Virus genome (UHGV): UHGV-0374663
Reading direction: 5' to 3' (one strand)
DNA from: a virus
DNA: 28,845 nt
Below are positions 3,529-28,845 of this stretch, piece after piece. Position 1 is the stretch's first letter. Every line of letters begins with the position of its first letter. Both the position numbers and the translations under genes were made by a program. The notes beneath the pieces were generated by a model, which saw only the letters and a list, made by a program, of their open reading frames with translations, did no database searches and was not told the origin of the DNA.

Positions 3529-5794
3529 AGCCTCCGGGCGTTTTGTCCCTCCGTCAGCATTTGCCGCAGGCACCGGTAAGGCGTTTACCGGTGCTTATGC
3601 ATGGAACGCGCCACGCGAGGCTGTCGGGCGCGAAAGACCCCTTACACGTGACGAGATGCGTCAGGTGCAAGGTGTTTTATCCACGATTAACCGCCTGCCT
3701 TACTTTTTGCGCTCGCTGTTTACTTCACGCTATGACTACATCCGGCGCAATAAAAGCCCGGTGCACGGGTTTTATTTCCTCACATCCACTTTTCAGCGTC
3801 GTTTATGGCCGCGCATTGAGCGTGTGAATCAGCGCCATGAAATGAACACCGACGCGTCGTTGCTGTTTCTGGCAGAGCGTGACCACTATGCGCGCCTGCC
3901 GGGAATGAATGACAAGGAGCTGAAAAAGTTTGCTGCCCGTATATCATCGCAGCTTTTCATGATGTATGAGGAACTCTGCGATGCCTGGGTGGATGCGCAT
4001 GGCGAAAAAGAATCGCTGTTTACGGATGAGGCGCAGGCTCACCTCTATGGTCATGTTGCTGGCGCTGCACGTGCTTTCAATATTTCCCCTCTCTACTGGA
4101 AAAAATACCGTAAAGGACAGATGACCACGAGGCAGGCATATTCTGCCATTGCCCGTCTGTTTAACGATGAGTGGTGGATTAGTCAGCTTCAAGGCCAGCG
4201 TATGCGCTGGCATGAGGCGTTACTGATTGCTGTCGGGGAGGTCAATAAAGACCGTTCTCCTTATGCCAGTAAACATGCCATTCGTGATGTGCGTGCACGC
4301 CGCCAGGCAAATCTGGAGTTTCTTAAATCGTGTGACCTTGAAAATAAGGAAACCGGCGAGCGCATTGACCTTATCAGTAAGGTGATGGGCAGTATTTCTA
4401 ATCCTGAAATTCGCCGGATGGAGCTGATGAACACCATTGCCGGTATTGAGCGTTACGCCGCTGCAGAGGGTGATGTGGGGATGTTTATCACGCTGACCGC
4501 GCCGTCAAAGTATCACCCGACACGTCAGGTCGGAAAAGGAGAAAGTAAAACCGTCCAGCTTAATCACGGCTGGAATGATGAGGCATTTAATCCAAAGGAT
4601 GCGCAGCGTTATCTCTGCCGTATCTGGAGCCTGGTGCGCACGGCATTCAAAGATAATGATTTACAGGTCTACGGTTTGCGAGTCGTCGAGCCACACCACG
4701 ACGGAACGCCGCACTGGCATATGATGCTTTTTTGTAATCCACGCCAGCGTAACCAGATTATCGAAATCATGCGTCGCTATGCGCTCAAAGAGGATGGCGA
4801 CGAAAGAGGAGCCGCGCGAAACCGTTTTCAGGCAAAACATCTTAACCGGGGCGGTGCTGCGGGATATATTGCTAAATACATCTCAAAAAATATCGACGGC
4901 TATGCACTGGATGGTCAGCTCGATAACGATACCGGCAGGCCGCTGAAAGACACTGCAGCGGCTGTTACCGCATGGGCGTCAACGTGGCGCATCCCACAAT
5001 TTAAAACGGTTGGTCTGCCGACAATGGGGGCTTACCGTGAACTACGCAAATTGCCTCGCGGCGTCAGCATTGCTGATGAGTTTGACGAGCGCGTCGAGGC
5101 TGCACGCGCCGCTGCAGACAGTGGTGATTTTGCGTTGTATATCAGCGCGCAGGGCGGGGCAAATGTCCCGCGCGATTGTCAGACTGTCAGGGTCGCCCGT
5201 AGCCCGTCGGATGACGTTAACGAGTACGAGGAAGAAGTCGAGAGAGTGGTCGGCATTTACGCGCCGCATCTCGGCGCGCGTCATATTCATATCACCAGAA
5301 CGACGGACTGGCGCATTGTGCCGAAAGTGCCGGTCGTTGAGCCTTTGACGTTAAAAAGCGGCATCGCCGCGCCTCGGAGTCCTGTCAATAACTGTGGAAA
5401 GCTCACCGGTGGTGATACTTCGTCACCGGCTCCCACGCCTTCTGAGCACGCCGCAGCAGTGCTTAATCTGGTTGATGACGGTGTTATCGAATGGAATGAC
5501 CCGGAGGTCGTGAGGGCGCTCAGAGGTGCATTAAAACACGAACTGAGAACACCAAATCGTCAGCAGAGAAACGGAAGCCCGTTAAAACCACATGAAATAG
5601 CGCCATCGGCCAGACTGACCCGGTCGGAACGAATGCAAATCACCCGTATCCGCGTTGACCTTGCTCAGAACGGTATCAGGCCTCAGCGATGGGAGCTTGA
5701 GGCGCTGGCGCGTGGCGCGACAGTAAATTATGACGGAATAAAATTCACGTATCCTGTCGCTGATGAGTGGCAGGGATTCACAATGGACCATTGA
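3518..5794 (+). CDS. A: Replication initiation endonuclease A (rolling-circle Rep, HUH family)
   Basis: ORF-track frame 3476..5794; start MAVKASGRF at 3518 matches the P2 gpA N-terminus as I recall it. HUH motif PHHDGTPHWHMMLF and active-site tyrosine region AKYISKNIDGY are present. Confidence 0.92.
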   Translation: MAVKASGRFVPPSAFAAGTGKAFTGAYAWNAPREAVGRERPLTRDEMRQVQGVLSTINRLPYFLRSLFTSRYDYIRRNKSPVHGFYFLTSTFQRRLWPRIERVNQRHEMNTDASLLFLAERDHYARLPGMNDKELKKFAARISSQLFMMYEELCDAWVDAHGEKESLFTDEAQAHLYGHVAGAARAFNISPLYWKKYRKGQMTTRQAYSAIARLFNDEWWISQLQGQRMRWHEALLIAVGEVNKDRSPYASKHAIRDVRARRQANLEFLKSCDLENKETGERIDLISKVMGSISNPEIRRMELMNTIAGIERYAAAEGDVGMFITLTAPSKYHPTRQVGKGESKTVQLNHGWNDEAFNPKDAQRYLCRIWSLVRTAFKDNDLQVYGLRVVEPHHDGTPHWHMMLFCNPRQRNQIIEIMRRYALKEDGDERGAARNRFQAKHLNRGGAAGYIAKYISKNIDGYALDGQLDNDTGRPLKDTAAAVTAWASTWRIPQFKTVGLPTMGAYRELRKLPRGVSIADEFDERVEAARAAADSGDFALYISAQGGANVPRDCQTVRVARSPSDDVNEYEEEVERVVGIYAPHLGARHIHITRTTDWRIVPKVPVVEPLTLKSGIAAPRSPVNNCGKLTGGDTSSPAPTPSEHAAAVLNLVDDGVIEWNDPEVVRALRGALKHELRTPNRQQRNGSPLKPHEIAPSARLTRSERMQITRIRVDLAQNGIRPQRWELEALARGATVNYDGIKFTYPVADEWQGFTMDH

Positions 5795-5903
5795 TGATTA
5801 ACATGAAAGAATTATGGAGCTTGCTTATATCGTGTTATGTCAGTTTACTGGATACAGGGCAAGTGAATGCCCCTTTCCATGAATTAGATTAAAGGCTTGC
5901 AAA

Positions 5904-7235
5904 ATGAACAATAACAGTCAGAAAGCTTTGAGTAAGAAGAAAACCAAGAAAACCAAAAAGAAGTCGCTTACCCCTGAACAAAAAGCATTGCAAGCAGAAC
6001 AAGCAGCAAAAAAAGCGCAAATTATAGAGAATAGGCGCTCTATTACAGCTCATGCTATTAACCTTTTTCAGCAATATACAGCACTCCGTAAAAAAGGATT
6101 AGATAGTTCCACTGCTACTTTGCAAGCTTATGCTGATTATGAAAAAGTACATGGACATAAATTCCTTAGTTCTATCTCTATGTGGACAAAAATCAAAACT
6201 GAAGCAGGGATTCGGATCTATGATCGTGAGAGACAAGATAGTCGTAAATCGCTTAATCTTGCTAAGATCCCAACCCGTTTAGAGGCTAAGCGTAGTGTAC
6301 TGACACAGAATCAAAAGAAAGTACATAACCAGAATGCAAATACATTACGCTTAATCGGTGGCAAAAAGCTACCTGTAACATCTATGGGGCTTATTGTATG
6401 TCCTGTCTGCGAGATACATATAAAAGATAGTGCTATAGAGTGGCATTTACGACACAACCACGTAGATCATATAGATAACCCGTTTACTAACCCTATAGTA
6501 GCTCCGGTTGATACTTTAGAAGAGGCTGTAGAAATACGAGACCTACTAATTGGTGATAAAACACTTCCGATTAAATCTAGTACTATTAATATGGGGAGTG
6601 ACAAGAAAGATAAACGTTATTTTAATAAGCAAGTTTATCAAACGGCATTGCTAACAATGACACAATCAGAAGCGTGGAAACTCGCGACTGATGAAGAATC
6701 TAGTATGACTTTTTTAAGCAATCAGTACATAAGTCCATTAACATCACCGGAACCCAATAATGAAATATCTCTTATCATGGATGGAACAGCTATAGCCATT
6801 AATGAAGGTCTAACTAATCCTTTAAAAGCCGCAAACGATACCTGTGCTACAGGACGAACAGTCGAGGTTACTCATAAAGTCCGTCATGCTGGAGATCAAG
6901 CTGATTTCAAACGCCGTGTTTGGGATAACTTCAATGGCAGATGTGCTATTACTGGCTATCCATTGCCAGAGGGGATATTGGAAGCCGCACATATTGAAGC
7001 AATAACAGAAGCGGCAAATAATAACACATCTAATGGCCTGTTACTTGAAGTAAGTTTGCACCGAATGTTTGATAAAGGATTGATGGGGATTAATCCAGAG
7101 GACTTAACGGTTCATTTCTCTATTAATTGTATCCACAAAACTATGTTTGAGGGTAAAACTCTACAACCACATCATGTAGAACTTGATGCTGACAAGTTGA
7201 TGACAAAATGGAAAAAGTTCAATGATAAGCGTTAA
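5904..7235 (+). CDS. Cargo protein: Lys-rich N-terminus + Zn-finger-like motif + C-terminal HNH nuclease domain
   Basis: 443-aa ORF in an AT-rich segment. HNH motif CAITG...LEAAHI...NGLLLEVSLHRMFDKG (aa 347-391, nt 6942..7073). C166-x2-C169-x11-H181-x2-H184-x-H186 motif (nt 6399..6470). Low-complexity KKKTKKTKKK at aa 11-20. Shine-Dalgarno-like AAAGG upstream of the ATG. Confidence 0.8.
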   Translation: MNNNSQKALSKKKTKKTKKKSLTPEQKALQAEQAAKKAQIIENRRSITAHAINLFQQYTALRKKGLDSSTATLQAYADYEKVHGHKFLSSISMWTKIKTEAGIRIYDRERQDSRKSLNLAKIPTRLEAKRSVLTQNQKKVHNQNANTLRLIGGKKLPVTSMGLIVCPVCEIHIKDSAIEWHLRHNHVDHIDNPFTNPIVAPVDTLEEAVEIRDLLIGDKTLPIKSSTINMGSDKKDKRYFNKQVYQTALLTMTQSEAWKLATDEESSMTFLSNQYISPLTSPEPNNEISLIMDGTAIAINEGLTNPLKAANDTCATGRTVEVTHKVRHAGDQADFKRRVWDNFNGRCAITGYPLPEGILEAAHIEAITEAANNNTSNGLLLEVSLHRMFDKGLMGINPEDLTVHFSINCIHKTMFEGKTLQPHHVELDADKLMTKWKKFNDKR

Positions 7236-7326: not shown

Positions 7327-7746
7327 ATGGTGACGCTTGATACTGTTTATTGGAAATTTGGTTATGCTTCGGAAGCAGCTCAATTACTGGAGACTGAGTT
7401 GATAAATATTATCACTGAGTATGATATGAGTCAGGGGAAAGATATACAGTCGCTGAAAAAACAGTTTTTAGAAATGGATAAATACACGCTGGGTAGATTG
7501 AATTACGCACTGAAGTCTAGGATGGTGGAGGATGCTGATACACTGGAGCGTGTGTCTGATGCTCTTAAAGCCAGAAACTACTTAGCACATGACTTTTATC
7601 GCAAACATGCTGAAGGTAAATTCACTCCGGAAGGAAGGCAGAGAATGCTTGCCGACTTAAATAGTGTACATCACATAATTTTTGAGGCTTACCGCAAGGT
7701 TCTGCAACTAAGCGACATTGAAATTCCTCCTTTAGAGCATGATTAA
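7327..7746 (+). CDS. Cargo protein 2: small hypothetical protein, likely co-transcribed with the HNH protein
   Basis: 139-aa ORF 91 bp downstream of the HNH gene on the same strand, same AT-rich composition, GGGGAA Shine-Dalgarno 8 nt upstream; no motif recognised. Confidence 0.65.
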   Translation: MVTLDTVYWKFGYASEAAQLLETELINIITEYDMSQGKDIQSLKKQFLEMDKYTLGRLNYALKSRMVEDADTLERVSDALKARNYLAHDFYRKHAEGKFTPEGRQRMLADLNSVHHIIFEAYRKVLQLSDIEIPPLEHD

Positions 7747-7874
7747 ATCTTGCATGCATTAGATGCATTGGTTTGCATGCATCATTCGTTATTTTCATTT
7801 TCGAGTGCCGTCAGTGTCGGCATGGTTTTGACGGATTCATACATGTGCATTAAAACCTCCCCATGAAGCGGGCG

Positions 7875-17309: not shown

Positions 17310-17945
17310 ATGAACACTCTCGCAAATATTCAGGAACTCGCGCGCGCACTGCGCAACATGATCCGCACCGGCATTATCGTCGAAACCGACCTTAACGCCG
17401 GTCGCTGCCGTGTGCAGACCGGCGGCATGTGCACCGACTGGCTTCAGTGGCTGACCCATCGCGCCGGACGTTCGCGCACATGGTGGGCGCCTTCCGTGGG
17501 GGAACAGGTGCTGATTCTGTCCGTGGGTGGTGAACTCGACACGGCGTTCGTTCTGCCGGGGATTTATTCCGGTGATAACCCCTCGCCGTCTGTGTCGGCG
17601 GATGCCCTGCATATCCGTTTCCCTGACGGGGCGGTGATTGAATATGAACCCGAAACCAGTGCACTCACGGTAAGCGGAATTAAAACGGCCAGCGTGACGG
17701 CTTCTGATTCTGTTACTGCCACGGTGCCTGTGGTCACGGTGAAAGCGTCAACCCGTGTCACCCTGGACACACCGGAAGTGGTCTGCACTAACAAACTGAC
17801 TACCGGCACGCTGGAAGTGCAGAAGGGCGGGACGATGCGCGGCAACATTGAACACACCGGCGGTGAACTCTCATCAAACGGTAAGGTACTGCATACCCAT
17901 AAACACCCCGGCGACAGCGGCGGCACAACCGGGGGACCTCTATGA
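17310..17945 (+). CDS. V: Baseplate spike protein
   Basis: 211 aa, the P2 gpV length. Confidence 0.9.
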   Translation: MNTLANIQELARALRNMIRTGIIVETDLNAGRCRVQTGGMCTDWLQWLTHRAGRSRTWWAPSVGEQVLILSVGGELDTAFVLPGIYSGDNPSPSVSADALHIRFPDGAVIEYEPETSALTVSGIKTASVTASDSVTATVPVVTVKASTRVTLDTPEVVCTNKLTTGTLEVQKGGTMRGNIEHTGGELSSNGKVLHTHKHPGDSGGTTGGPL

Positions 17946-18289
17946 CTGCGCGTTATCTCGGAATGAATCGCAGTGATGGCCTGACTGTCACTGACCTTGA
18001 GCATATCAGCCAGAGTATCGGCGATATCCTGCGCACACCGGTCGGCTCACGGGTGATGCGTCGTGATTACGGCTCGTTGCTGGCATCAATGATTGACCAG
18101 CCGCAGACCCCGGCGCTTGAGTTGCAGATTAAGGTCGCCTGTTACATGGCGGTGCTGAAATGGGAACCCCGCGTCACCCTGTCATCTGTCACCACGGCGC
18201 GCAGCTTTGACGGGCGAATGACGGTCACGTTAACCGGCCAGCACAACGACACCGGCCAGTCACTTTCGTTAACCATCCCTGTGAGTTGA
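17942..18289 (+). CDS. W: Baseplate wedge protein (gp25-like)
   Basis: 115 aa, the P2 gpW length. Confidence 0.9.
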   Translation: MTARYLGMNRSDGLTVTDLEHISQSIGDILRTPVGSRVMRRDYGSLLASMIDQPQTPALELQIKVACYMAVLKWEPRVTLSSVTTARSFDGRMTVTLTGQHNDTGQSLSLTIPVS

Positions 18290-18293
18290 AACC

Positions 18294-19202
18294 ATGCCGA
18301 TTATCGACCTGAACCAGCTACCCGCACCGGATGTGGTCGAAGAGCTGGACTTTGAAACCATTCTTGCCGAACGCAAGGCGACACTGATTTCCCTTTACCC
18401 GGAAGACCAGCAGGAGGCGGTCGCCCGTACCCTGACGCTGGAATCCGAGCCTCTCGTCAAACTGCTGGAGGAAAATGCTTATCGTGAGCTTATCTGGCGT
18501 CAGCGTGTGAATGAGGCCGCACGGGCGGTGATGCTGGCCTGTGCTGCCGGTAATGACCTTGATGTGATTGGTGCCAATTACAACACCACGCGCCTGACTA
18601 TCACCCCGGCAGATGATTCGACCATCCCGCCGACACCGGCAGTGATGGAGTCTGACACCGATTATCGTCTGCGTATTCAGCAGGCGTTTGAAGGTTTAAG
18701 CGTCGCCGGGTCGGTGGGTGCCTATCAGTATCATGGTCGAAGTGCTGACGGGCGTGTCGCGGATATCTCTGTCACCAGTCCGTCTCCGGCCTGCGTCACC
18801 ATCTCCGTGCTGTCACGTGAAAATAACGGTGTCGCATCCGAAGACCTGCTGGCCGTGGTGCGTAACGCCCTTAATGGCGAGGACGTCAGGCCGGTGGCCG
18901 ACCGCGTGACCGTGCAGTCTGCCGCCATCGTTGAATACCAGATAAACGCCACGCTGTATCTTTACCCTGGTCCCGAAAGCGAACCCATTCGCGCTGCCGC
19001 CGTGAAAAAACTGGAAGCGTATATCACGGCACAGCACCGGCTGGGGCGCGACATCCGTCTGTCTGCCATTTATGCCGCTTTGCATGTGGAAGGCGTGCAG
19101 CGTGTCGAGCTGGCCGCACCGCTGGCCGACATCGTGCTCAACAATACGCAGGCGTCTTTCTGTACTGAATACAGCGTCGTGACGGGAGGCTCGGATGAGT
19201 GA
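18294..19202 (+). CDS. J: Baseplate protein J
   Basis: 302 aa, the P2 gpJ length. Confidence 0.9.
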   Translation: MPIIDLNQLPAPDVVEELDFETILAERKATLISLYPEDQQEAVARTLTLESEPLVKLLEENAYRELIWRQRVNEAARAVMLACAAGNDLDVIGANYNTTRLTITPADDSTIPPTPAVMESDTDYRLRIQQAFEGLSVAGSVGAYQYHGRSADGRVADISVTSPSPACVTISVLSRENNGVASEDLLAVVRNALNGEDVRPVADRVTVQSAAIVEYQINATLYLYPGPESEPIRAAAVKKLEAYITAQHRLGRDIRLSAIYAALHVEGVQRVELAAPLADIVLNNTQASFCTEYSVVTGGSDE

Positions 19203-19806
19203 TTCGCGACTGCTGCCAACCGGCTCATCACCGCTTGAAGTTGCCGCCGCAAAAGCCTGTGCGGAAATTGAAAAAACACCGGTCAGTATTCGTGAGCTGT
19301 GGAACCCGGACACCTGCCCGGCAAATCTGCTGCCGTGGCTGGCGTGGTCATTTTCGGTTGACCGCTGGGATGATAAGTGGCCGGAAGCGACAAAACGCGC
19401 TGTTATCCGCGATGCGTATTTCATTCACTGCCATAAGGGCACTATTGGTGCGATTCGCCGTGTGGTGGAGCCGCTCGGCTATCTGATTGAGGTGAGGGAG
19501 TGGTGGCAGCTCAACGAGGAGCCGGGGACGTTCCGCATCGTTGTTGGCGTGCTTGAGCAGGGTATTACCGAGGAAATGTATCAGGAGCTGGAGCGCCTCG
19601 TTGCTGATGCAAAACCGGCAAGCCGCCATCTGACGGGACTGGCTATCAGTTTAAGTACAACCGGCAACATTTTTGCCGGTGCGGGATGCTATCACGGTGA
19701 CGCCCTGACGGTTTATCCCTACACACCGGAGGCCATTATTGTCGGAGGGGATTATTTCCCGGCCTCGGCCATTCATTTAATTGATAACCTGAGAGTAAAC
19801 GCATGA
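19195..19806 (+). CDS. I: Baseplate protein I
   Basis: 203-aa ORF with GGAGG upstream, between J and H. The start is less certain; my recollection of P2 gpI is shorter. Confidence 0.8.
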   Translation: MSDSRLLPTGSSPLEVAAAKACAEIEKTPVSIRELWNPDTCPANLLPWLAWSFSVDRWDDKWPEATKRAVIRDAYFIHCHKGTIGAIRRVVEPLGYLIEVREWWQLNEEPGTFRIVVGVLEQGITEEMYQELERLVADAKPASRHLTGLAISLSTTGNIFAGAGCYHGDALTVYPYTPEAIIVGGDYFPASAIHLIDNLRVNA

Positions 19807-20486
19807 CAGTGAAATACTACGCCATTCTGACTAATCAGGGCGCAGCACGGCTGGCTAACGCGACGATGCTCGGCAGTAAGCTGAATCTGACGCAAATGGC
19901 CGTTGGTGATGCGAATGGTGTCTTACCGACACCAGACCCGGCACAGACAAAACTGATTAACCAGAAACGCATCGCGCCGCTGAATCTTCTGAGTGTTGAC
20001 CCGAACAATCAGAGCCAGATTATTGCGGAGCAAATCATCCCTGAAAACGAGGGCGGATTCTGGATCCGTGAGATTGGACTTTATGATGATGAAGGCGTAC
20101 TCATTGCGGTGGCGAACTGCCCGGAAACGTACAAACCGCAGTTGCAGGAAGGCAGTGGTCGTACCCAGACTATCCGCATGATTCTGGTTGTCACGAACAC
20201 CGAAGCCATCACGCTGAAAATCGACCCGGCTGTGGTACTGGCAACACGTAAATATGTGGATGACAAAATTTCTGAGCACGAACAGTCACGACGCCACCCG
20301 GACGCCTCGCTGACCGCAAAAGGTTTTACTCAGTTAAGCAGTGCAACTAACAGTACATCTGAAACACTGGCCGCAACACCGAAAGCGGTAAAGGCTGCAT
20401 ATGACCTGGCTAACGGGAAATATACCGCTCAGGATGCGACTACGGCACGAAAAGGCCTTGTTAAACTCAGTAGCGCCACAAAGTGA
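19803..20486 (+). CDS. H: Tail fibre protein H, N-terminal part only (227 codons, premature stop inside the collar-repeat region)
   Basis: Ends with P2-H-type repeats (SSATNSTSETLAATPKAVKAAYDLANGKYTAQDATTARKGLVKLSSAT) then a stop; P2 H is about 669 aa. Confidence 0.75.
   Translation: MTVKYYAILTNQGAARLANATMLGSKLNLTQMAVGDANGVLPTPDPAQTKLINQKRIAPLNLLSVDPNNQSQIIAEQIIPENEGGFWIREIGLYDDEGVLIAVANCPETYKPQLQEGSGRTQTIRMILVVTNTEAITLKIDPAVVLATRKYVDDKISEHEQSRRHPDASLTAKGFTQLSSATNSTSETLAATPKAVKAAYDLANGKYTAQDATTARKGLVKLSSATK
20397..20482. repeat. Left arm of a perfect 86-bp inverted repeat within the H collar-repeat coding sequence
   Basis: 20397..20482 is the exact reverse complement of 20708..20793, checked base by base. 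Confidence 0.85.
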
Positions 20487-20862
20487 GTATGGCGTTTGCC
20501 GGTTGTCTTCCATTAGCCAGGTCGTATGCAGCCTTTACCGCTTTTGGCGTTGCAGCCAGTGTTTCAGATGTGCTGTTGGTTGCACTACTGAGCTGAACAA
20601 GCCCTTTTTGCGTCGTGGTGGCGTTCTGGGCGGTATATTTCCCGTTAGCCAGGTCATACGCCGCCTTGACCGCTTTTGGCGTTGCAGCCAGTGTTTCAGA
20701 CGTGCTGTTTGTGGCGCTACTGAGTTTAACAAGGCCTTTTCGTGCCGTAGTCGCATCCTGAGCGGTATATTTCCCGTTAGCCAGGTCATATGCGGCCGTA
20801 GATCGTGCCGCGTTAACTGCACTGACAAGTGTTGGTCGTGCAATTCTTAGTAAGCCCAGCAC
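20467..20862 (-). pseudogene. Inverted fragment encoding H-type collar repeats on the opposite strand
   Basis: Minus-strand ORF (GTG start) translating to two or three copies of ...NSTSETLAATPKAVKAAYDLANGKYTAQ...; it is the mirror of the end of the H N-terminal ORF and is unlikely to be an independent gene. Confidence 0.4.
20708..20793. repeat. Right arm of the perfect 86-bp inverted repeat
   Basis: Reverse complement of 20397..20482. Confidence 0.85.
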
Positions 20863-20870
20863 ACAGGGAG

Positions 20871-20896
20871 TTCTTGATTATCTTGGTTTGGGAGAA
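20871..20896 (+). other. DNA-invertase crossover-like 26-bp sequence (hix/gix/cix-like) inside the tail-fibre reading frame
   Basis: TTCTTGATTATC-TT-GGTTTGGGAGAA matches hixL (TTCTTGAAAACC-AA-GGTTTTTGATAA, from memory) at 18 of 24 half-site positions; it encodes LDYLGLGEG in frame. Confidence 0.4.
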
Positions 20897-21364
20897 GGCT
20901 CTGCATTGCCTGTTGGTGTACCTGTTCCGTGGCCCTCCGCAACCCCGCCAACGGGCTGGCTGAAATGCAACGGCGCTGCCTTTGATAAGGTGAAATATCC
21001 CCATCTTGCTACAGCATATCCATCAGGGAAACTACCTGATCTCCGTGGTGAGTTTATTCGTGGATGGGATGACAGGCGTGGTATTGATGCAGGACGTGCT
21101 TTATTGAGCATTCAGACTGGGATGCTGGAAAAACACCGCCATATTGTTGTTGCCAACGATGGGTATGATTCAAAAGAGGAATGGGAACTGGCGACAATCT
21201 TCAGAAGAGCATATACGCAAGGCCGGGGGCTTGATGCTGCCGATGCCGGAGGAACTCTGATTCCATCACCAACGCTACATACACGAGGGAGTATTGGTAA
21301 CACAGGTGGGAGCGAAACCCGTCCACGAAATATTGCATTTAACTATATCGTGAGAGCTGCATAA
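20888..21364 (+). CDS. Tail fibre C-terminal receptor-binding tip (Mu S / P1 S / lambda Stf-like), lacking a canonical ATG
   Basis: Ends ...TRPRNIAFNYIVRAA, typical of Mu/P1/Stf-type fibre tips. The frame is open from 20762 but the only start-like codon is TTG at 20888; it looks like the detached distal part of H. Confidence 0.7.
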   Translation: MGEGSALPVGVPVPWPSATPPTGWLKCNGAAFDKVKYPHLATAYPSGKLPDLRGEFIRGWDDRRGIDAGRALLSIQTGMLEKHRHIVVANDGYDSKEEWELATIFRRAYTQGRGLDAADAGGTLIPSPTLHTRGSIGNTGGSETRPRNIAFNYIVRAA

Positions 21365-21966
21365 TGGATAAAGCCGTATTAAATAGCGAACTTATTGCCA
21401 CGAAGGCGGGGAATATTACCGTCTATAACTATGATGGTGAAACACGGGAATATATTTCCACTTCAAATGAATATCTTGCCGTTGGTGTCGGTATCCCGGC
21501 ATATTCCTGTTTAGATGCTCCTGGCACATATAAGGCGGGTTATGCTATCTGCCGTTCTATGGATTTAAAATCATGGGAATATGTGTCAGACCATCGTGGT
21601 GAAATTGTCTATAGCACCGAAACAGGTGAATCAAAAGAAATCAAAACTCCGGGTGATTACCCTGAAAATGCAACCACTATCGCCCCGTCAACGCCATACG
21701 ATAAATGGGATGGTGAGAAATGGGTGACGGATACCGAGGCACAGCATAGCGCCGCAGTAGATGCAGCAGAAGCACAGCGCCAGTCACTGATTGATGCAGC
21801 AATGGCTTCCATTAGTCTGATTCAGCTGAAATTACAGGCCGGGCGGAAACTGACGCAGGCAGAAACAACCCGGCTTAACGCTGTGCTGGATTACATTGAC
21901 GCGGTGACGGCAACAGATACCAGCACCGCGCCTGATGTTATCTGGCCTGAACTGCCGGAGGCGTAG
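21364..21966 (+). CDS. G: Tail fibre assembly protein (Tfa/U-like)
   Basis: 200 aa immediately after the fibre tip; C-terminal ...DVIWPELPEA is typical of Tfa chaperones. Confidence 0.85.
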   Translation: MDKAVLNSELIATKAGNITVYNYDGETREYISTSNEYLAVGVGIPAYSCLDAPGTYKAGYAICRSMDLKSWEYVSDHRGEIVYSTETGESKEIKTPGDYPENATTIAPSTPYDKWDGEKWVTDTEAQHSAAVDAAEAQRQSLIDAAMASISLIQLKLQAGRKLTQAETTRLNAVLDYIDAVTATDTSTAPDVIWPELPEA

Positions 21967-21976
21967 GCCATTCAAT

Positions 21977-22019
21977 ATCTGGAGCACTGGAAATTTCGAC
22001 AAGTTCCAGTGCTCCAGAT
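21977..22019. repeat. Perfect 16-bp stem hairpin (ATCTGGAGCACTGGAA / TTCCAGTGCTCCAGAT) just downstream of tfa
   Basis: Inverted repeat with an 11-nt loop and no U-tract; possible terminator or RNA processing/regulatory structure. Confidence 0.4.
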
Positions 22020-22150
22020 AATCGACTGTGTGGGAACAGGCAGGACGATTGCTGGCTGCGAGGGAATCACGTCAACGTGTGGCGCTGATTTTTGATATTG
22101 ACCTGTCCACGCTCTATAAAAAATTCGCCTCATCAGCGACAAAGAATAAA

Positions 22151-22158
22151 TTGTGCCA
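22151..22158 (+). promoter_or_regulatory. TTGTGCCA element upstream of FI (putative Ogr-dependent late promoter PF)
   Basis: Same 8-mer as upstream of V; 92 nt upstream of the FI ATG. Confidence 0.3.
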
Positions 22159-22242
22159 CCCATCAGCCAACCGGGACAAATAGCCTGACATCTCCGGCAC
22201 ACATGAAAATACCACTCACCCATTAACCACGGAGTTAAACGG

Positions 22243-23433
22243 ATGAGTGACTATCATCACGGCGTGCAGGTGTTGGAGATTAACGACGGCACCCGCGTCA
22301 TTTCCACCGTATCCACTGCCATTGTCGGCATGGTCTGCACGGCCAGCGATGCGGATGCGGAAACCTTCCCCCTCAATAAACCTGTGCTGATTACCAATGT
22401 GCAGAGCGCAATTGCAAAGGCCGGTAAAAAAGGCACGCTGGCGGCATCGTTGCAGGCCATCGCTGACCAGTCAAAACCGGTCACCGTTGTCGTGCGTGTG
22501 GAAGACGGCACCGGCGAAGACGAGGAAACGAAACTTGCGCAGACCGTTTCCAATATCATCGGCACCACCGACGAAAACGGCCAGTACACCGGACTGAAAG
22601 CCCTGCTGGCGGCGGAGTCGGTAACCGGTGTTAAACCGCGTATTCTTGGTGTGCCGGGGCTGGATACCAAAGAGGTGGCTGTTGCACTGGCATCAGTCTG
22701 TCAGAAGCTGCGCGCTTTCGGATATATCAGCGCATGGGGCTGTAAGACCATTTCCGAGGTGAAAGCCTACCGCCAGAATTTCAGCCAGCGTGAACTGATG
22801 GTTATCTGGCCGGATTTCCTCGCATGGGATACGGTCACCAGTACCACCGCCACCGCGTATGCCACCGCCCGTGCGCTGGGTCTGCGCGCTAAAATCGACC
22901 AGGAGCAGGGCTGGCATAAAACGCTGTCCAACGTCGGGGTAAACGGTGTTACCGGCATCAGCGCATCTGTATTCTGGGATTTGCAGGAGTCCGGCACCGA
23001 TGCTGACCTGCTTAACGAGTCAGGCGTCACTACGCTGATTCGCCGCGACGGTTTCCGATTCTGGGGTAACCGTACCTGCTCTGATGACCCGCTGTTCCTC
23101 TTTGAAAACTACACCCGCACCGCGCAGGTGCTGGCCGATACGATGGCTGAGGCGCACATGTGGGCGGTGGACAAGCCCATCACCGCAACGCTGATTCGCG
23201 ACATCGTTGACGGCATCAATGCCAAATTCCGAGAGCTGAAAACAAACGGCTATATCGTGGATGCGACCTGCTGGTTCAGCGAAGAATCCAACGATGCGGA
23301 AACCCTCAAGGCCGGAAAACTGTATATCGACTACGACTATACACCGGTGCCTCCTCTTGAAAATCTGACCCTGCGCCAGCGTATTACCGATAAATACCTG
23401 GCAAATCTGGTCACCTCGGTTAACAGCAATTAA
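22243..23433 (+). CDS. FI: Tail sheath protein
   Basis: 396 aa, the P2 gpFI length; ACGGAG Shine-Dalgarno upstream. Confidence 0.95.
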   Translation: MSDYHHGVQVLEINDGTRVISTVSTAIVGMVCTASDADAETFPLNKPVLITNVQSAIAKAGKKGTLAASLQAIADQSKPVTVVVRVEDGTGEDEETKLAQTVSNIIGTTDENGQYTGLKALLAAESVTGVKPRILGVPGLDTKEVAVALASVCQKLRAFGYISAWGCKTISEVKAYRQNFSQRELMVIWPDFLAWDTVTSTTATAYATARALGLRAKIDQEQGWHKTLSNVGVNGVTGISASVFWDLQESGTDADLLNESGVTTLIRRDGFRFWGNRTCSDDPLFLFENYTRTAQVLADTMAEAHMWAVDKPITATLIRDIVDGINAKFRELKTNGYIVDATCWFSEESNDAETLKAGKLYIDYDYTPVPPLENLTLRQRITDKYLANLVTSVNSN

Positions 23434-23445
23434 GGAGCCTGACCG

Positions 23446-23964
23446 ATGGCAATGCCGCGCAAACTCAAGTTAATGAACGTCTTTCTGAACGGCTACAGCT
23501 ATCAGGGCGTCGCGAAGTCCGTCACGCTACCAAAACTGACCCGTAAGCTCGAAAACTATCGCGGTGCGGGGATGAACGGCAGCGCACCGGTAGACCTCGG
23601 CCTTGATGACGATGCGCTGTCAATGGAGTGGTCGCTCGGTGGCTTCCCGGATTCGGTTATCTGGGAGCTTTACGCCGCAACCGGTGTGGATGCCGTACCG
23701 ATTCGTTTTGCAGGCTCTTACCAGCGCGACGATACCGGCGAAACGGTGGCCGTCGAGGTGGTCATGCGTGGACGTCAGAAAGAAATCGACACCGGCGAGG
23801 GCAAACAGGGAGAAGACACCGAGTCGAAAATCTCCGTGGTCTGCACCTATTTCCGGCTGACGATGGACGGTAAGGAGCTGGTCGAAATCGACACCATCAA
23901 CATGATTGAGAAGGTGAACGGCGTCGACCGGCTGGAGCAACACCGTCGCAATATCGGCCTGTGA
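23446..23964 (+). CDS. FII: Tail tube protein
   Basis: 172 aa, the P2 gpFII length. Confidence 0.95.
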   Translation: MAMPRKLKLMNVFLNGYSYQGVAKSVTLPKLTRKLENYRGAGMNGSAPVDLGLDDDALSMEWSLGGFPDSVIWELYAATGVDAVPIRFAGSYQRDDTGETVAVEVVMRGRQKEIDTGEGKQGEDTESKISVVCTYFRLTMDGKELVEIDTINMIEKVNGVDRLEQHRRNIGL

Positions 23965-23971
23965 TTTTCAT

Positions 23972-23993
23972 CCGGTCAGCCTGGCTGACCGGT
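23972..23993 (+). terminator. Strong hairpin (CCGGTCAGCC-TG-GGCTGACCGG) between FII and E; possible attenuator or partial terminator
   Basis: Perfect 10-bp GC-rich stem with a 2-nt loop, 8 nt after the FII stop; followed only by TT, so full termination is doubtful. Confidence 0.35.
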
Positions 23994-24020
23994 TAACCCC
24001 GATTCAGAAGTGAGAAAACC

Positions 24021-24296
24021 ATGAACAAAGAAAACGTCATTACCCTGGACAAGCCGGTCAAACGTGGTGAGCAGGTTATCGAACAGGTCACGCTGATGAA
24101 ACCTAATGCCGGGACGCTGCGCGGTGTCAGTCTGGCTGCGGTCGCAAACTCCGAAGTCGATGCACTGATTAAAGTGCTGCCGCGTATGACCGCACCGATG
24201 CTGACCGAGCAGGAAGTCGCCGCGCTGGAACTGCCTGACCTTGTGGCGCTGGCCGGTAAGGTGGTCGGTTTTTTGTCGCCGAACTCGGTGCAGTGA
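24021..24296 (+). CDS. E: Tail assembly chaperone E
   Basis: 91 aa, the P2 gpE length. Confidence 0.85.
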   Translation: MNKENVITLDKPVKRGEQVIEQVTLMKPNAGTLRGVSLAAVANSEVDALIKVLPRMTAPMLTEQEVAALELPDLVALAGKVVGFLSPNSVQ

Positions 24297-24448
24297 CGTT
24301 TCCGAAAAATCTCTCGGTCGATGACCTGATGGCGGATGTGGCAGTGATATTTCACTGGCCGCCATCAGAACTGTATCCCATGAGCCTGACCGAACTCATC
24401 ACATGGCGCGAAAAGGCGCTCCGGCGAAGCGGAAACACGAATGAGTAA
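24021..24448 (+). CDS. E': E+E' tail assembly chaperone made by programmed -1 frameshift at TTTTTTG (24269..24275)
   Basis: Slippery T6G run near the end of E; the -1 frame stays open to TAA at 24446..24448, overlapping the T start. Total about 142 aa, matching the P2 E+E' product. Confidence 0.7.
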
Positions 24449-26888
24449 CAATGTAAAATTACAGGTATTGCTCAGGGCTGTTGACCAGGCATCCCGCCCG
24501 TTTAAATCCATCCGCACAGCGAGCAAGTCGCTGTCGGGGGATATCCGGGAAACACAAAAATCACTGCGCGAGCTGAACGGTCAGGCATCCCGTATTGAGG
24601 GGTTCCGCAAGACCAGTGCACAGCTCGCCGTGACTGGTCAGGAACTGAAAAAAGCCAGACAGGAAGCCGCAGCACTGGCTGTCCAGTTTAAAAATACTGA
24701 ACGACCAACAAATGCACAGGCAAAGGCAATGGAAGCCGCGCGTAAAAATGTGTCGGAGTTACAGGCGAAATATAACAGCCTGAGATTGTCGGTACAGCGC
24801 CAGCGTCAGGAACTGAGTCAGGCGGGTATTAATACCCGTAATCTGGCGCATGATGAACGAGGGCTGAAAAACCGTATCAGTGAAACCACCGTACAGCTTA
24901 ACCGGCAGCGTGACGCGCTGGCGCGTGTCAGTGCGCAACAGGCAAAACTTAACGCAGTAAAACAGCGTTATCAGGCCGGAAAGGAACTGGCCGGAAATAT
25001 GGCCTCAGTGGGCGCTGCCGGTGTGGGGATTGCTGCTGCGGGAACGATGGCCGGTGTTAAGCTGCTGATGCCCGGTTATGAGTTTGCGCAGAAAAACTCA
25101 GAATTGCAGGCTGTGCTCGGTGTCGCAAAAGACTCCGCCGAAATGGCCGCGCTACGCAAACAGGCGCGCCAGCTCGGCGACAATACCGCAGCCTCGGCAG
25201 ATGATGCAGCCGGTGCACAGATTATCATTGCGAAAGCGGGTGGAGATGCTGCGGCTATTCAGGCGGCAACGCCGGTCACGCTGAATATGGCACTGGCGAA
25301 TCAGCGGTCGATGGAAGAAAACGCGCAACTGTTGCTGGGGACTAAAGCATCTTTTCAACTGTCAAATGATGATGTCAGCCATGTGGGCGATGTGTTGTCG
25401 GCAACGATGAATAAGTCGGCGGCTGATTTTCAGGGACTCAGTGATGCACTGACTTATCTTGGCCCGGTCGCAAGAACGGCAGGTGTAAGTCTTGAGCAGG
25501 CAGCAGCCATGACCGGTGTGCTGCATGACAATAACATCAGGGGGTCAATGGCGGGTACTGGTAGTAGTGCCGTTGTCACCCGATTACAGGCTCCGACAGG
25601 GAAAGCATGGGAAGCACTCAAAGAGCTTGGCGTTAAAACCTCGGACAAAAAGGGAAATATGCGTCCGTTGTTCACCATTCTGAAAGAGATTCAGGCCAGC
25701 TTTGATAAACACAAGCTGGGAACGTCTCAGAAGGGGGAATACCTTAAAACCATTTTTGGTGAGGAAGCCCTGAAATCAGCGAACGTTTTACTGGCAGCGG
25801 CTGCAAGCGGAAAGCTGGATAAGCTGACCGCCACGCTGAAAGCCTCGGACGGTAAAACGGAAGAGCTGGTTAAAATCATGCAGGATAACCTCGGCGGTGA
25901 CTTTAAGGAGTTTCAGTCCGCTTATGAGGCGGTGGGGACAGACCTGTTTGACCAGCAGGAAGGCGCACTGCGTAAGCTCACTCAGACGGCCACAAAGTAT
26001 GTGTTAAAACTCGACGGCTGGATCCAGAAAAACAAATCACTGGCGTCAACCATCGGCCTCATTGTCGGTGGCGCGCTGGCGCTTATTGGCATCATCGGTG
26101 CCATTGGTCTTGTAGCCTGGCCGGTTATCACCGGCATCAATGCCATCATCGCGGCAGCAGGCGCAATGGGGGCAATCTTCACGACGGTTGGCAGTGCTGT
26201 TATGACCGCCATCGGGGCGATTAGCTGGCCGGTTGTGGCCGTGGTGGCAGCCATTGTCGCCGGGACGTTGCTTATCCGTAAATACTGGGAGCCTGTCAGC
26301 GCATTCTTTGGCGGTGTGGTTGAAGGGCTGAAAGCGGCATTTGCGCCGGTGGGGGAACTGTTCACGCCACTTAAGCCGGTGTTTGACTGGCTGGGCGAAA
26401 AGTTACAGGCCGCGTGGCAGTGGTTTAAAAACCTGATTGCCCCGGTCAAAGCCACACAGGACACCCTGAACCGTTGCCGTGACACGGGCGTCATGTTCGG
26501 GCAGGCACTGGCTGACGCGTTGATGCTACCGCTTAATGCGTTCAACAAACTGCGCAGCGGTATTGACTGGGTACTGGAAAAACTCGGTGTTATCAACAAA
26601 GAGTCAGACACACTTGACCAGACCGCAGCCAGAACTCATGCCGCCACGTATGGCACCGGTGGTTATATTCCGGCGACCAGCTCTTATGCAGGCTATCAGG
26701 CTTATCAGCCGGTTACGGCACCGGCTGGCCGCTCTTATGTGGACCAGAGTAAAAACGAATATCACATCAACCTGACGGGTGGTACTGCGCCGGGGACACA
26801 GCTTGACCGCCAGTTACAGGATGCGCTCGAAAAATACGAGCGGGATAAACGTGCGCGCGCCCGTGCCAGCATGATGCATGACGGTTAA
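24441..26888 (+). CDS. T: Tail tape measure protein
   Basis: 815 aa, the P2 gpT length; coiled-coil N-terminus and Gly/Ala-rich transmembrane-like core. Confidence 0.95.
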   Translation: MSNNVKLQVLLRAVDQASRPFKSIRTASKSLSGDIRETQKSLRELNGQASRIEGFRKTSAQLAVTGQELKKARQEAAALAVQFKNTERPTNAQAKAMEAARKNVSELQAKYNSLRLSVQRQRQELSQAGINTRNLAHDERGLKNRISETTVQLNRQRDALARVSAQQAKLNAVKQRYQAGKELAGNMASVGAAGVGIAAAGTMAGVKLLMPGYEFAQKNSELQAVLGVAKDSAEMAALRKQARQLGDNTAASADDAAGAQIIIAKAGGDAAAIQAATPVTLNMALANQRSMEENAQLLLGTKASFQLSNDDVSHVGDVLSATMNKSAADFQGLSDALTYLGPVARTAGVSLEQAAAMTGVLHDNNIRGSMAGTGSSAVVTRLQAPTGKAWEALKELGVKTSDKKGNMRPLFTILKEIQASFDKHKLGTSQKGEYLKTIFGEEALKSANVLLAAAASGKLDKLTATLKASDGKTEELVKIMQDNLGGDFKEFQSAYEAVGTDLFDQQEGALRKLTQTATKYVLKLDGWIQKNKSLASTIGLIVGGALALIGIIGAIGLVAWPVITGINAIIAAAGAMGAIFTTVGSAVMTAIGAISWPVVAVVAAIVAGTLLIRKYWEPVSAFFGGVVEGLKAAFAPVGELFTPLKPVFDWLGEKLQAAWQWFKNLIAPVKATQDTLNRCRDTGVMFGQALADALMLPLNAFNKLRSGIDWVLEKLGVINKESDTLDQTAARTHAATYGTGGYIPATSSYAGYQAYQPVTAPAGRSYVDQSKNEYHINLTGGTAPGTQLDRQLQDALEKYERDKRARARASMMHDG

Positions 26889-26902
26889 GGAGGTGATGAA
26901 AA

Positions 26903-27382
26903 ATGATGCTCGCGTTAGGTATGTTTGTTTTTATGCGCCAGACGCTGCCACACCAGACCATGCAGCGTGAATCAGATTATCGCTGGCCGTCAAATTCCCG
27001 TATCGGTAAACGGGATGCCTACCAGTTTCTCGGCGTTGGCGAGGAAAACATCACGCTTGCCGGTGTGCTTTATCCCGAACTGACCGGCGGCAAGCTGACG
27101 ATGACCACGCTCAGGCTGATGGCAGAGGAGGGGCGAGCGTGGCCGTTGCTGGATGGCACCGGCATGATTTACGGCATGTATGTCATCAACAAGGTGAGTG
27201 AAACAGGGAGTATTTTCTTTGCAGACGGCACACCCCGGAAAATTGATTTTACGCTGTCGCTCACCCGCGTTGATGAATCACTGGCCGCGCTTTATGGCGA
27301 TATCGGTAAACAGGCGGAGTCGCTCATCGGTAAGACTGGCAGTATGGCGACCAGATTCACGGGTATGACGGGGGCAGGATAA
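26903..27382 (+). CDS. U: Tail protein U
   Basis: 159 aa, the P2 gpU length. Confidence 0.9.
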   Translation: MMLALGMFVFMRQTLPHQTMQRESDYRWPSNSRIGKRDAYQFLGVGEENITLAGVLYPELTGGKLTMTTLRLMAEEGRAWPLLDGTGMIYGMYVINKVSETGSIFFADGTPRKIDFTLSLTRVDESLAALYGDIGKQAESLIGKTGSMATRFTGMTGAG

Positions 27383-28545
27383 TGCTGGATGCGCTGACAT
27401 TTGATGCAGGCAGTACGCTGACGCCGGATTACATGCTGATGCTCGACAGCAGGGATATTACCGGCAATATCAGCGACCGTCTGATGAGCATGACTCTGAC
27501 GGATAACCGGGGCTTTGAGGCTGACCAGCTTGATATTGAACTGAACGATGCCGACGGGCAGGTCGAACTGCCGGTTCGTGGCGCTGTCCTGACGGTGTAT
27601 ATCGGCTGGAAAGGTTTTGCCCTGGTATGCAAAGGGAAATTCACCGTTGATGAGGTTGAACACCGGGGCGCGCCGGATGTGGTCACCATCCGCGCCCGGA
27701 GTGCAGATTTCCGCGGGACGCTCAATTCCCGCCGTGAAGGCTCCTGGCATGACACCACGCTCGGTGCGATTGTTGAGGCGATAGCCTCCCGTAACAGGCT
27801 GGAAGCCAGTGTCGCTCCGTCACTGGCCGGAATTAAAATTCCGCACATCGACCAGTCGCAGGAGTCTGATGCGAAATTCCTGACCCGCCTTGCAGAACGC
27901 AACGGCGGTGAGGTGTCGGTAAAAATGGGAAAACTGCTGTTTCTCAAAGCGGGGCAGGGGGTGACGGCCAGCGGTAAAAAAATCCCGCAGATTACCATCA
28001 CTCGCAGCGACGGCGACCGCCATCATTTTGCGATTGCTGACCGTGGAGCCTACACCGGTGTAACGGCAAAATGGCTACACACCAAAGACCCGAAGCCTCA
28101 AAAGCAGAAGGTAAAACTGAAACGCAAAAAGAAAGAGAAACACCTGCGCGCACTGGAGCACCCGAAAGCGAAACCGGTCAGGCAGAAGAAAGCGCCTAAA
28201 GTACCGGAAGCGCGTGAAGGTGAATACATGGCCGGTGAGGCTGACAACGTTTTTGCCCTGACCACGGTATATGCCACGAAAGCGCAGGCCATGCGCGCCG
28301 CTCAGGCGAAGTGGGATAAGCTGCAACGGGGCGTTGCGGAGTTCTCCATCAGTCTGGCTACCGGTCGTGCTGATATTTACACGGAAACACCGGTTAAAGT
28401 GTCAGGCTTTAAGCGCGTCATAGACGAGCAGGACTGGACAATCACTAAGGTGACACATTTTCTGAATAATAGCGGCTTCACGACGTCCTTGGAGCTTGAG
28501 GTCAGGCTTTCTGATGTGGAGTACGAAACAGAAGATGATGACTGA
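27382..28545 (+). CDS. D: Tail protein D (late control gene D family)
   Basis: 387 aa, the P2 gpD length. Confidence 0.9.
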   Translation: MLDALTFDAGSTLTPDYMLMLDSRDITGNISDRLMSMTLTDNRGFEADQLDIELNDADGQVELPVRGAVLTVYIGWKGFALVCKGKFTVDEVEHRGAPDVVTIRARSADFRGTLNSRREGSWHDTTLGAIVEAIASRNRLEASVAPSLAGIKIPHIDQSQESDAKFLTRLAERNGGEVSVKMGKLLFLKAGQGVTASGKKIPQITITRSDGDRHHFAIADRGAYTGVTAKWLHTKDPKPQKQKVKLKRKKKEKHLRALEHPKAKPVRQKKAPKVPEAREGEYMAGEADNVFALTTVYATKAQAMRAAQAKWDKLQRGVAEFSISLATGRADIYTETPVKVSGFKRVIDEQDWTITKVTHFLNNSGFTTSLELEVRLSDVEYETEDDD

Positions 28546-28629
28546 TGTTATTATTTTATCTGTTTGTTTTATAAGGATAAATTAACTAAAATGGCACCAT
28601 CAACAAAACCGGAAGAGGTGCTCGCGATG

Positions 28630-28845
28630 TTTCATTGTCCTTTATGCCAGCATGCCGCACATGCGCGTACAAGCCGCTATATCACTGACACGACAAAAGA
28701 GCGTTATCACCAGTGTCAGAACGTGAATTGCAGCGCCACGTTCATCACTTATGAGTCGGTACAGCGATACATCGTGAAGCCGGGAGAAGTCCACGCCGTA
28801 AGGCCGCACCCGTTACCATCAGGACAGCAAATTATGTGGATGTGA
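28630..28845 (+). CDS. ogr: Ogr, zinc-finger activator of late transcription
   Basis: 72 aa from MFHCPLCQHAAH...; Cys4 zinc finger (CPLC...CQNVNC). ORF-track frame starts at 28564, but the 72-aa form matches P2 Ogr. Confidence 0.88.
   Translation, partial: FHCPLCQHAAHARTSRYITDTTKERYHQCQNVNCSATFITYESVQRYIVKPGEVHAVRPHPLPSGQQIMWM

Follow-up and report, generated by a model that had tools for sequence, protein, structure and literature searches.

Crossover sites of Din-family invertases at the joint between the constant and the variable part of a tail-fibre gene are well established in phages. For the P segment of the e14 prophage, inversion at the repeats TTGGTTTGGGAGAAGG / CCTTCTCCCAAACCAA was shown experimentally, and this repeat is inverted in trans by PinQ, PinR and PinE (PMC12529663). 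That the invertases of other prophages can act on such cassettes in trans is already known (PMC12529663). Also known is that P2-like prophages carry cassettes of this kind (PMC4272514); in EPEC E2348/69 the invertible fibre cassettes of the P2-like prophages phase-vary (PMC4272514).

Here, we analysed one candidate site in a stretch of 28,845 nt (UHGV-0374663), which is called the window in the following. It represents an E. coli-type prophage of the P2 family (Peduovirus) with a P2-like gene order, in which V, W, J and I (baseplate) are followed by H (fibre), a chaperone gene and FI (sheath). In many complete E. coli genomes, about 89-90% of window positions 1-20482 align at ~97% identity, and 549 complete E. 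coli genomes cover no less than 80% of this part. From 17834 to 28845 the window is, local rearrangement aside, essentially identical to the IMG/VR contig L007, with no mismatch in 2,649 bases and one in 8,048 bases.

The site comprises 26 bp (20871..20896, not assigned to a strand; TTCTTGATTATCTTGGTTTGGGAGAA on the plus strand) and is composed of a degenerate outer half-site (20871-20882, TTCTTGATTATC), the core dinucleotide TT (20883-20884, corresponding to AA on the minus strand) and an inner half-site (20885-20896, GGTTTGGGAGAA). A check of the sequence found it exactly where the initial annotation had placed it, and in the frame of the 3′ part of the fibre gene it encodes VLDYLGLGEG. The description as being embedded in the fibre reading frame is correct for this 3′ part, but the site is out of frame with the open reading frame of the 5′ part (19803-20486).

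As yardstick we used the 13 curated Din-family sites listed in Table 3 of PMC3241671, and as control 300 dinucleotide shuffles of the window, for each of which the best 26-mer against any of the 13 sites was recorded. As validation of the table, its gix, cix and pix sequences were recovered from the records of Mu, P1 and K-12 exactly where they are annotated. Shuffled windows gave maxima of 17-21, usually 18. Read on the minus strand, the site (TTCTCCCAAACC-AA-GATAATCAAGAA) agrees with mixQ''R' of p15B in 24 of 26 positions, a score which was reached in none of the 300 shuffles, none exceeding 21. The same reading matches pixL of e14 in 21 of 26 positions, including one complete half-site (12/12) and the AA core, i.e. 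14/14. The resemblance to Din-family sites which had been proposed for this sequence is upheld by these scores, although the comparison with hixL from which it started was of no value as evidence: the counts of 9/12 and 9/12 are arithmetically right according to the curated table (PMC3241671), but a total of 18/26 is chance level, within the range of the shuffled-window maxima, and hixL was dropped as a yardstick. A search with the strict palindromic consensus TTCTCNNAAACCAAGGTTTNNGAGAA, allowing up to three mismatches, had zero matches in the window and missed even the site itself because of its degenerate outer half. With two 12-bp, imperfectly inverted half-sites, a 2-bp core and a match to a verified site beyond chance, 20871-20896 is, on sequence grounds, a genuine Din-family crossover site of the Pin/Min type.

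Four independent lines make it a site by descent and not one by mere resemblance. First, the exact 26-mer was found in six IMG/VR contigs (L003-L008), and in one of these, L005, the identical sequence forms the fibre-side end of an intact inversion cassette. Its partner TTCTCCCAAACCAACGTTTGTGAAAA lies 1,879 bp away in inverted orientation and differs in only one base from pixR, as seen by direct comparison with the curated sequence. Between both sites tfa, an opposed tfa' and an alternative tip are located, and directly after the partner comes the gene of a 198-aa invertase, which has the catalytic YVRVST motif. Hence, where partner and invertase exist, the identical sequence serves as a site. 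Second, KC618326, a phage of E. coli O157:H43 T22, contains a perfect inverted repeat of 31 bp with the 14-bp core of the window site in it, which flanks 1,833 bp with tfa, tfa' and H'v and adjoins an invertase gene. Third, we scanned IMG/VR for the 14-mer TTGGTTTGGGAGAA and counted occurrences in a fibre or invertase context with enough flank; an inverted partner is present within 3.5 kb for 33 of these 43 occurrences. Among related IMG/VR contigs, the one constant end is followed by LGLGEG... in some and by LGLGEA... in others, i.e. both fusion states occur, and therefore such segments do flip. Fourth, window positions 20883-20898 are the 16-mer TTGGTTTGGGAGAAGG of the e14 inversion repeat.

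The site marks the seam of a mosaic fibre gene. The 3′ part of gene H (20798..21364, plus strand; identical to L007) comprises the constant end, the site and a Collar-domain tip (PF07484) of the e14 StfE type, and it is followed by a tail-fibre assembly chaperone gene of the TfaE type (tfa, 21364..21966, plus strand; Caudo_TAP, RefSeq tfaE). On the amino acid level, the chaperone is 91.5% identical to TfaE and the tip 57% identical to the StfE tip of e14. DNA homology to e14 starts at 20883, which is the core dinucleotide, and homology to KC618326 at 20879, while the shaft upstream of the seam is unrelated to the shafts of both. The location of the site at the constant/variable junction, as proposed before, is thereby directly observed, and the sites of Mu, P1 and e14 are found at the equivalent place. 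In the case of the module itself, a seam at the site had been predicted correctly, but the assigned Mu/P1 ancestry of tip and tfa had to be rejected: tblastn searches with both against the Mu G region, the P1 C region and P2 H/G gave no matches, and the module is of the e14 stfE/tfaE type. In the phage collection, the family of this tip is widely distributed, with members in P1-like elements, HK97 and lambda Stf, T4-like short fibres and others. The best match to the tip in this collection is ON470615.2 (vB_EcoM-673R5, 95 kb) with 72.8% amino acid identity, and six places of this genome match the tip. Its size suggests a P1-like element, and the six matches suggest a Min-like multiple-inversion region.

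Downstream of tfa, the remains of the other end of the cassette are preserved. The last 28 codons of tfa', the opposed second chaperone gene, occupy 21938..22023 on the minus strand (...ALELVEISSAPDIEWPTPPAVQAR*), as seen from the translation and from the alignment with KC618326. They adjoin a stub of a serine invertase gene (22022..22183, plus strand; 53 codons), of which only the C-terminal DNA-binding domain is left (Pfam HTH_7, 27.7 bits at a cutoff of 23.8). Its translation contains ...WEQAGRLLAARESRQRVALIFDIDLSTLYKKF... and is 90% identical to the C-terminus of the KC618326 invertase. Matches to Gin (71% over 31 aa), Cin (50% over 36 aa) and the C-terminus of PinE (59% over 34 aa) are limited to this C-terminal DNA-binding domain. 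For the 276 bp downstream of tfa, E. coli CUVET20-PYO4 is 100% identical (361 bp compared), and RefSeq annotates there a minus-strand tail-fibre assembly pseudogene 'missing N-terminus' and an HTH-domain protein 'missing N-terminus'. The tfa' stub corresponds to the RefSeq pseudogene 'missing N-terminus' in L002, the sequence of which is identical. The initial annotation had reported no serine-recombinase open reading frame, which holds for an intact gene but overlooked the HTH_7 stub. Its suggestion of a relic of a former invertible host-range segment is borne out by both stubs, which we regard as proof of this reading.

The extent of the loss can be read from KC618326, to which window 21313-22023 aligns at 5449-6160 and window 22023-22400 at 7424-7801. 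This gap in the alignment places the joint at ~22023, between the tfa' stub and the invertase stub, with 1,263 bp missing. Lost with this deletion are most of tfa', the alternative tip, the partner site and the N-terminal ~143 codons (~430 bp) of the invertase gene; these codons comprise the catalytic serine domain as well as the homologue of the Fis-dependent enhancer region. Comparison with the curated sites revealed no site-like sequence at the deletion joint, which argues for an illegitimate and not a site-specific event. Of 5,426 complete E. coli genomes, 29 contain the identical joint, as do five of the six IMG/VR contigs with the 26-mer, therefore it represents an established decayed lineage. 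A further feature of this region is a 20-nt inverted repeat at 21976-22020 (95% complementary, 5-nt loop), located inside the tfa' stub between the tfa stop and the joint, of which KC618326 has a weaker version. Lying between the convergent chaperone genes, this repeat may terminate transcription in both directions.

From these data, the history of the locus can be proposed as follows. The ancestor would have been a P2-like (Peduovirus) prophage with an invertible host-range cassette of the e14/Pin type, in the order H constant part, site, Collar tip, tfa, opposed tfa' with alternative tip, partner site and invertase. This layout is reconstructed from relatives and was not observed in this lineage. 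The invertase would have flipped the segment of ~1.9 kb by double-strand exchange at the central AA/TT of both 26-bp sites, thereby fusing one or the other tip to the constant fibre shaft. Subsequently, ~1.26 kb would have been lost by illegitimate deletion, from tfa' (most of the gene) through the whole alternative tip and the partner site into the invertase gene (its first ~430 bp), which left the fibre locked with the StfE-type tip and the TfaE-type chaperone. What remains of the site would now be merely coding sequence (LDYLGLGEG) and the visible seam between a P2-type shaft and an e14-type tip module. The invertase stub is closest to KC618326 and the site closest to L005, and with these different closest relatives the ancestor itself would already have been mosaic.

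Further observations in the window fit a switch that has come to rest. A scan against the curated sites found no second site in cis, the next best 26-mers reaching 17-18/26, which is chance level. No other TTCTCCCAAACCAA half-site occurs in the window with up to three mismatches, and an intact serine invertase gene with catalytic domain and HTH is absent beside the site, where only the stub is found. In each of four related invertase genes, the annotated P1 enhancer finds a counterpart within nt 19-96 (54-60 of 68-72 bases aligned); in the window it has no recognizable homologue (best local score 13 versus 40-48 for the invertase genes). Likewise, no alternative tip is encoded on the opposite strand of the window, in which the last 28 tfa' codons are all that is left. 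We conclude with considerable confidence that 20871-20896 is the fossil orphan site of a dead inversion system and most likely does not work as a site any longer. Both the order of events and the present inactivity are inferred.

Among the other explanations, the one which survives best, though it is quite improbable, assumes that the orphan site still works. PinE, PinQ or PinR supplied in trans by another prophage would pair it with a distant pix-type site, e.g. in e14 or in a second P2-like prophage, which would lead to inversions over long distances or to fibre modules being exchanged. The inner half-site and the core are identical to the e14 repeat which these three invertases invert in trans, and the combination of one perfect and one degenerate half is the architecture of verified sites such as mixQ''R'. 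Moreover, E. coli hosts often carry PinE, PinQ or PinR, which are active on this core (PMC12529663). The earlier proposal of Pin of e14 as a possible trans enzyme was an apt one, the inner 16 bp being the e14 repeat inverted by PinE (PMC12529663). Against an active site stands the window itself, without a partner, an enhancer homologue or an intact invertase. All six IMG/VR contigs with the exact 26-mer (L003-L008) also show a single tip orientation, LGLGEG. As known for Hin, Gin and Cin, invertases of the Din family need an enhancer in cis and a defined topology of the synapse, therefore events over megabase distances should be rare.

An arrangement that bears on this question is found in contig L018 (2187-6259, IMGVR_UViG_2778261065_000024). 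Here, two complete P2-type fibre genes face each other, with an ordinary segment of the invertible type (tip', tfa', then tfa and tip) between them and a pix-type site in each fibre gene; no invertase is present in this arrangement. Compared with complete E. coli genomes, both halves correspond to normal prophages, and the breaks lie exactly at the two sites. This head-to-head arrangement would be in line with activity in trans, as the product of an inversion between prophages at the two sites, but it could also be an assembly chimera across a shared repeat. The more general idea that orphan fibre sites stay recombinogenic for Pin-family invertases of other prophages, as docking points for the exchange of tip modules or for inter-prophage inversion, is speculative and rather unlikely; if true, L018 would be the product of an inter-prophage event at orphan sites. 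For the site in the window, we keep to the reading as a fossil.

Far less credible is an incidental likeness, in which this lineage never had an invertase site here and the DNA just encodes a conserved motif of fibres, (Y/N)LGL-x-E. This motif is indeed conserved in fibres without invertases, for example as EYLGLQE in gene H of canonical P2, a phage without invertase, and the hixL-level similarity cited initially is a chance-level one. However, the stubs of tfa' and the invertase lie 1.1 kb downstream of the site and the identical 26-mer is used in the intact system of L005. Codon conservation also fails to account for the partner sites next to the invertase genes, in which the same 14 bp are retained even though the outer half does not code for fibre protein. 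In addition, the residue after LGL tracks the subtype of the site, being Q with gix (Mu, P2), R with cix (P1) and G with pix (e14, window), and the motif is common to fibre tips which are otherwise dissimilar. The initial annotation had named conserved codons of LDYLGLGEG as a possible full explanation of the similarity, and these observations on partner halves, residues and dissimilar tips speak against it. P2 itself is no counter-example, since its H sequence matches bixL at 25 of 26 positions and is a site relic, too.

The fibre gene is additionally broken upstream of the site. Its 5′ part (19803..20482, plus strand), with the Phage_tail_fib N-terminal domain and a Phage_fiber_2 repeat, is 100% identical to L007 1987-2666, and in L007 gene H is intact with 507 aa. 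It is followed by an inverted fibre-shaft repeat block of 315 bp (20483..20797, minus strand), which, except for one mismatch at 20794, equals L007 2577-2892 read as reverse complement. When L007 up to 2666, the reverse complement of L007 2577-2892 and L007 from 2944 onwards are joined, window 19803-22400 is reproduced with 20794 as sole mismatch, located 4 nt from the right junction. In relation to L007, the rearrangement has duplicated 90 bp as inverted arms (left 20393..20482 on the plus strand, right 20708-20797; 99%, with a 225-bp spacer) and deleted 51 bp. As a consequence of the inverted block, the 5′ open reading frame ends at 20486, and the 3′ part with the site is read in a different frame. 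Recombination between the arms, flipping the 225-bp spacer, would probably not restore gene H. If the block 20483-20797 is re-inverted in silico, the left joint is in frame and the right joint out of frame (ACG TAG), therefore an ancestor related by clean inversion would be non-functional. The clean inversion of another ancestor was rejected on these grounds; derivation from an ancestor of the L007 type by a complex rearrangement agrees at every base but the one mismatch.

The junction 35-mer is absent from the GTDB representative genomes, IMG/VR and the JGI metagenomes, no complete E. coli genome spans the shaft-block junction, and the two novel open reading frame products of the rearrangement are absent from the gene catalogue. 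The rearrangement is either a recent template switch during replication in one isolate or an artefact of sequencing or assembly. That the site together with an invertase produced the block can be dismissed as next to impossible: the block lies only 73 bp upstream of the site and Cin is known to use quasi-sites, but neither junction (20482/20483 and 20797/20798, microhomology of 1 nt or less) coincides with the site or is Din-like, and a 90-bp duplication with a 51-bp deletion is impossible by conservative site-specific recombination, so that an invertase role was rejected on the anatomy of the junctions.

Under the preferred reading as a fossil site, the host-range switch of this prophage is dead and locked on one tip. 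The analysis narrows the mosaic seam in the fibre gene to 20879-20883, no more than about four bases from the core dinucleotide, corrects the affinity of the module from Mu/P1 to e14/p15B and provides a clean example for the decay of an invertible cassette by illegitimate deletion, not by site-specific loss. Decay of this kind is ordinary and already known, and has little import beyond annotation.

Compared with described systems, the locus combines features of several of them. In Mu (G segment, Gin) and P1 (C segment, Cin) the site lies within the fibre gene at the constant/variable joint as in the window, and the enhancer is located in the 5′ end of the invertase gene. However, tip and tfa of the window have no detectable similarity to S/U of Mu or P1, and the site subtype differs. 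Canonical P2 (NC_001895, L010 358-383) carries TTATCGAATATCTCGGTTTACAGGAA at the equivalent point of gene H (EYLGLQE), which on the reverse strand matches bixL at 25/26 and gix at 23/26 positions. With this match P2 also holds an orphan site, yet one of the gix/bix subtype (GA core, LGLQE) in front of a different tip, and P2 has fun(Z) between G and FI where the window has the invertase stubs.

The P2-like prophages of L005, KC618326 and EPEC E2348/69 share gene order and fibre family with the window, but their cassettes possess partner site and invertase gene, whereas the window has retained only stubs. L005 is especially close, with an identical 26-mer, 100% amino acid identity in the tip and 95% in tfa. 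In the case of KC618326, the annotated 165-aa 'phage DNA invertase' (L001 6995-7489) looks frameshifted near its 3′ end; the normal invertase C-terminus (RAKGRIGGRRPKL...STLYKKF) runs on in another frame.

The Min system of p15B has six sites and an active invertase, in contrast to the single site of the window. Compared by way of the curated site sequence, the degenerate half-site GGTAATCAAGAA of mixQ''R' corresponds to GATAATCAAGAA of the window, and both have the AA core in common. For the e14 P segment of E. coli K-12 (PinE, pixL/pixR), the 16-bp inner repeat TTGGTTTGGGAGAAGG is identical to that of the window, and the half-site and core of pixL and pixR match the window site 14/14. A stub of an opposed tfa' gene is a further common point. 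Differences are found in the outer half-site (TTCTTGATTATC in the window, CTCTCGAAAACC in e14), in the position of the window cassette within a P2-type fibre gene with a Phage_tail_fib N-terminal domain, and in the loss of partner site, alternative tip and catalytic domain of the invertase from the window. Judged by these alignments, the e14 P segment is the nearest characterised relative of the module that we found, and the site itself is nearest to the Min site of p15B.
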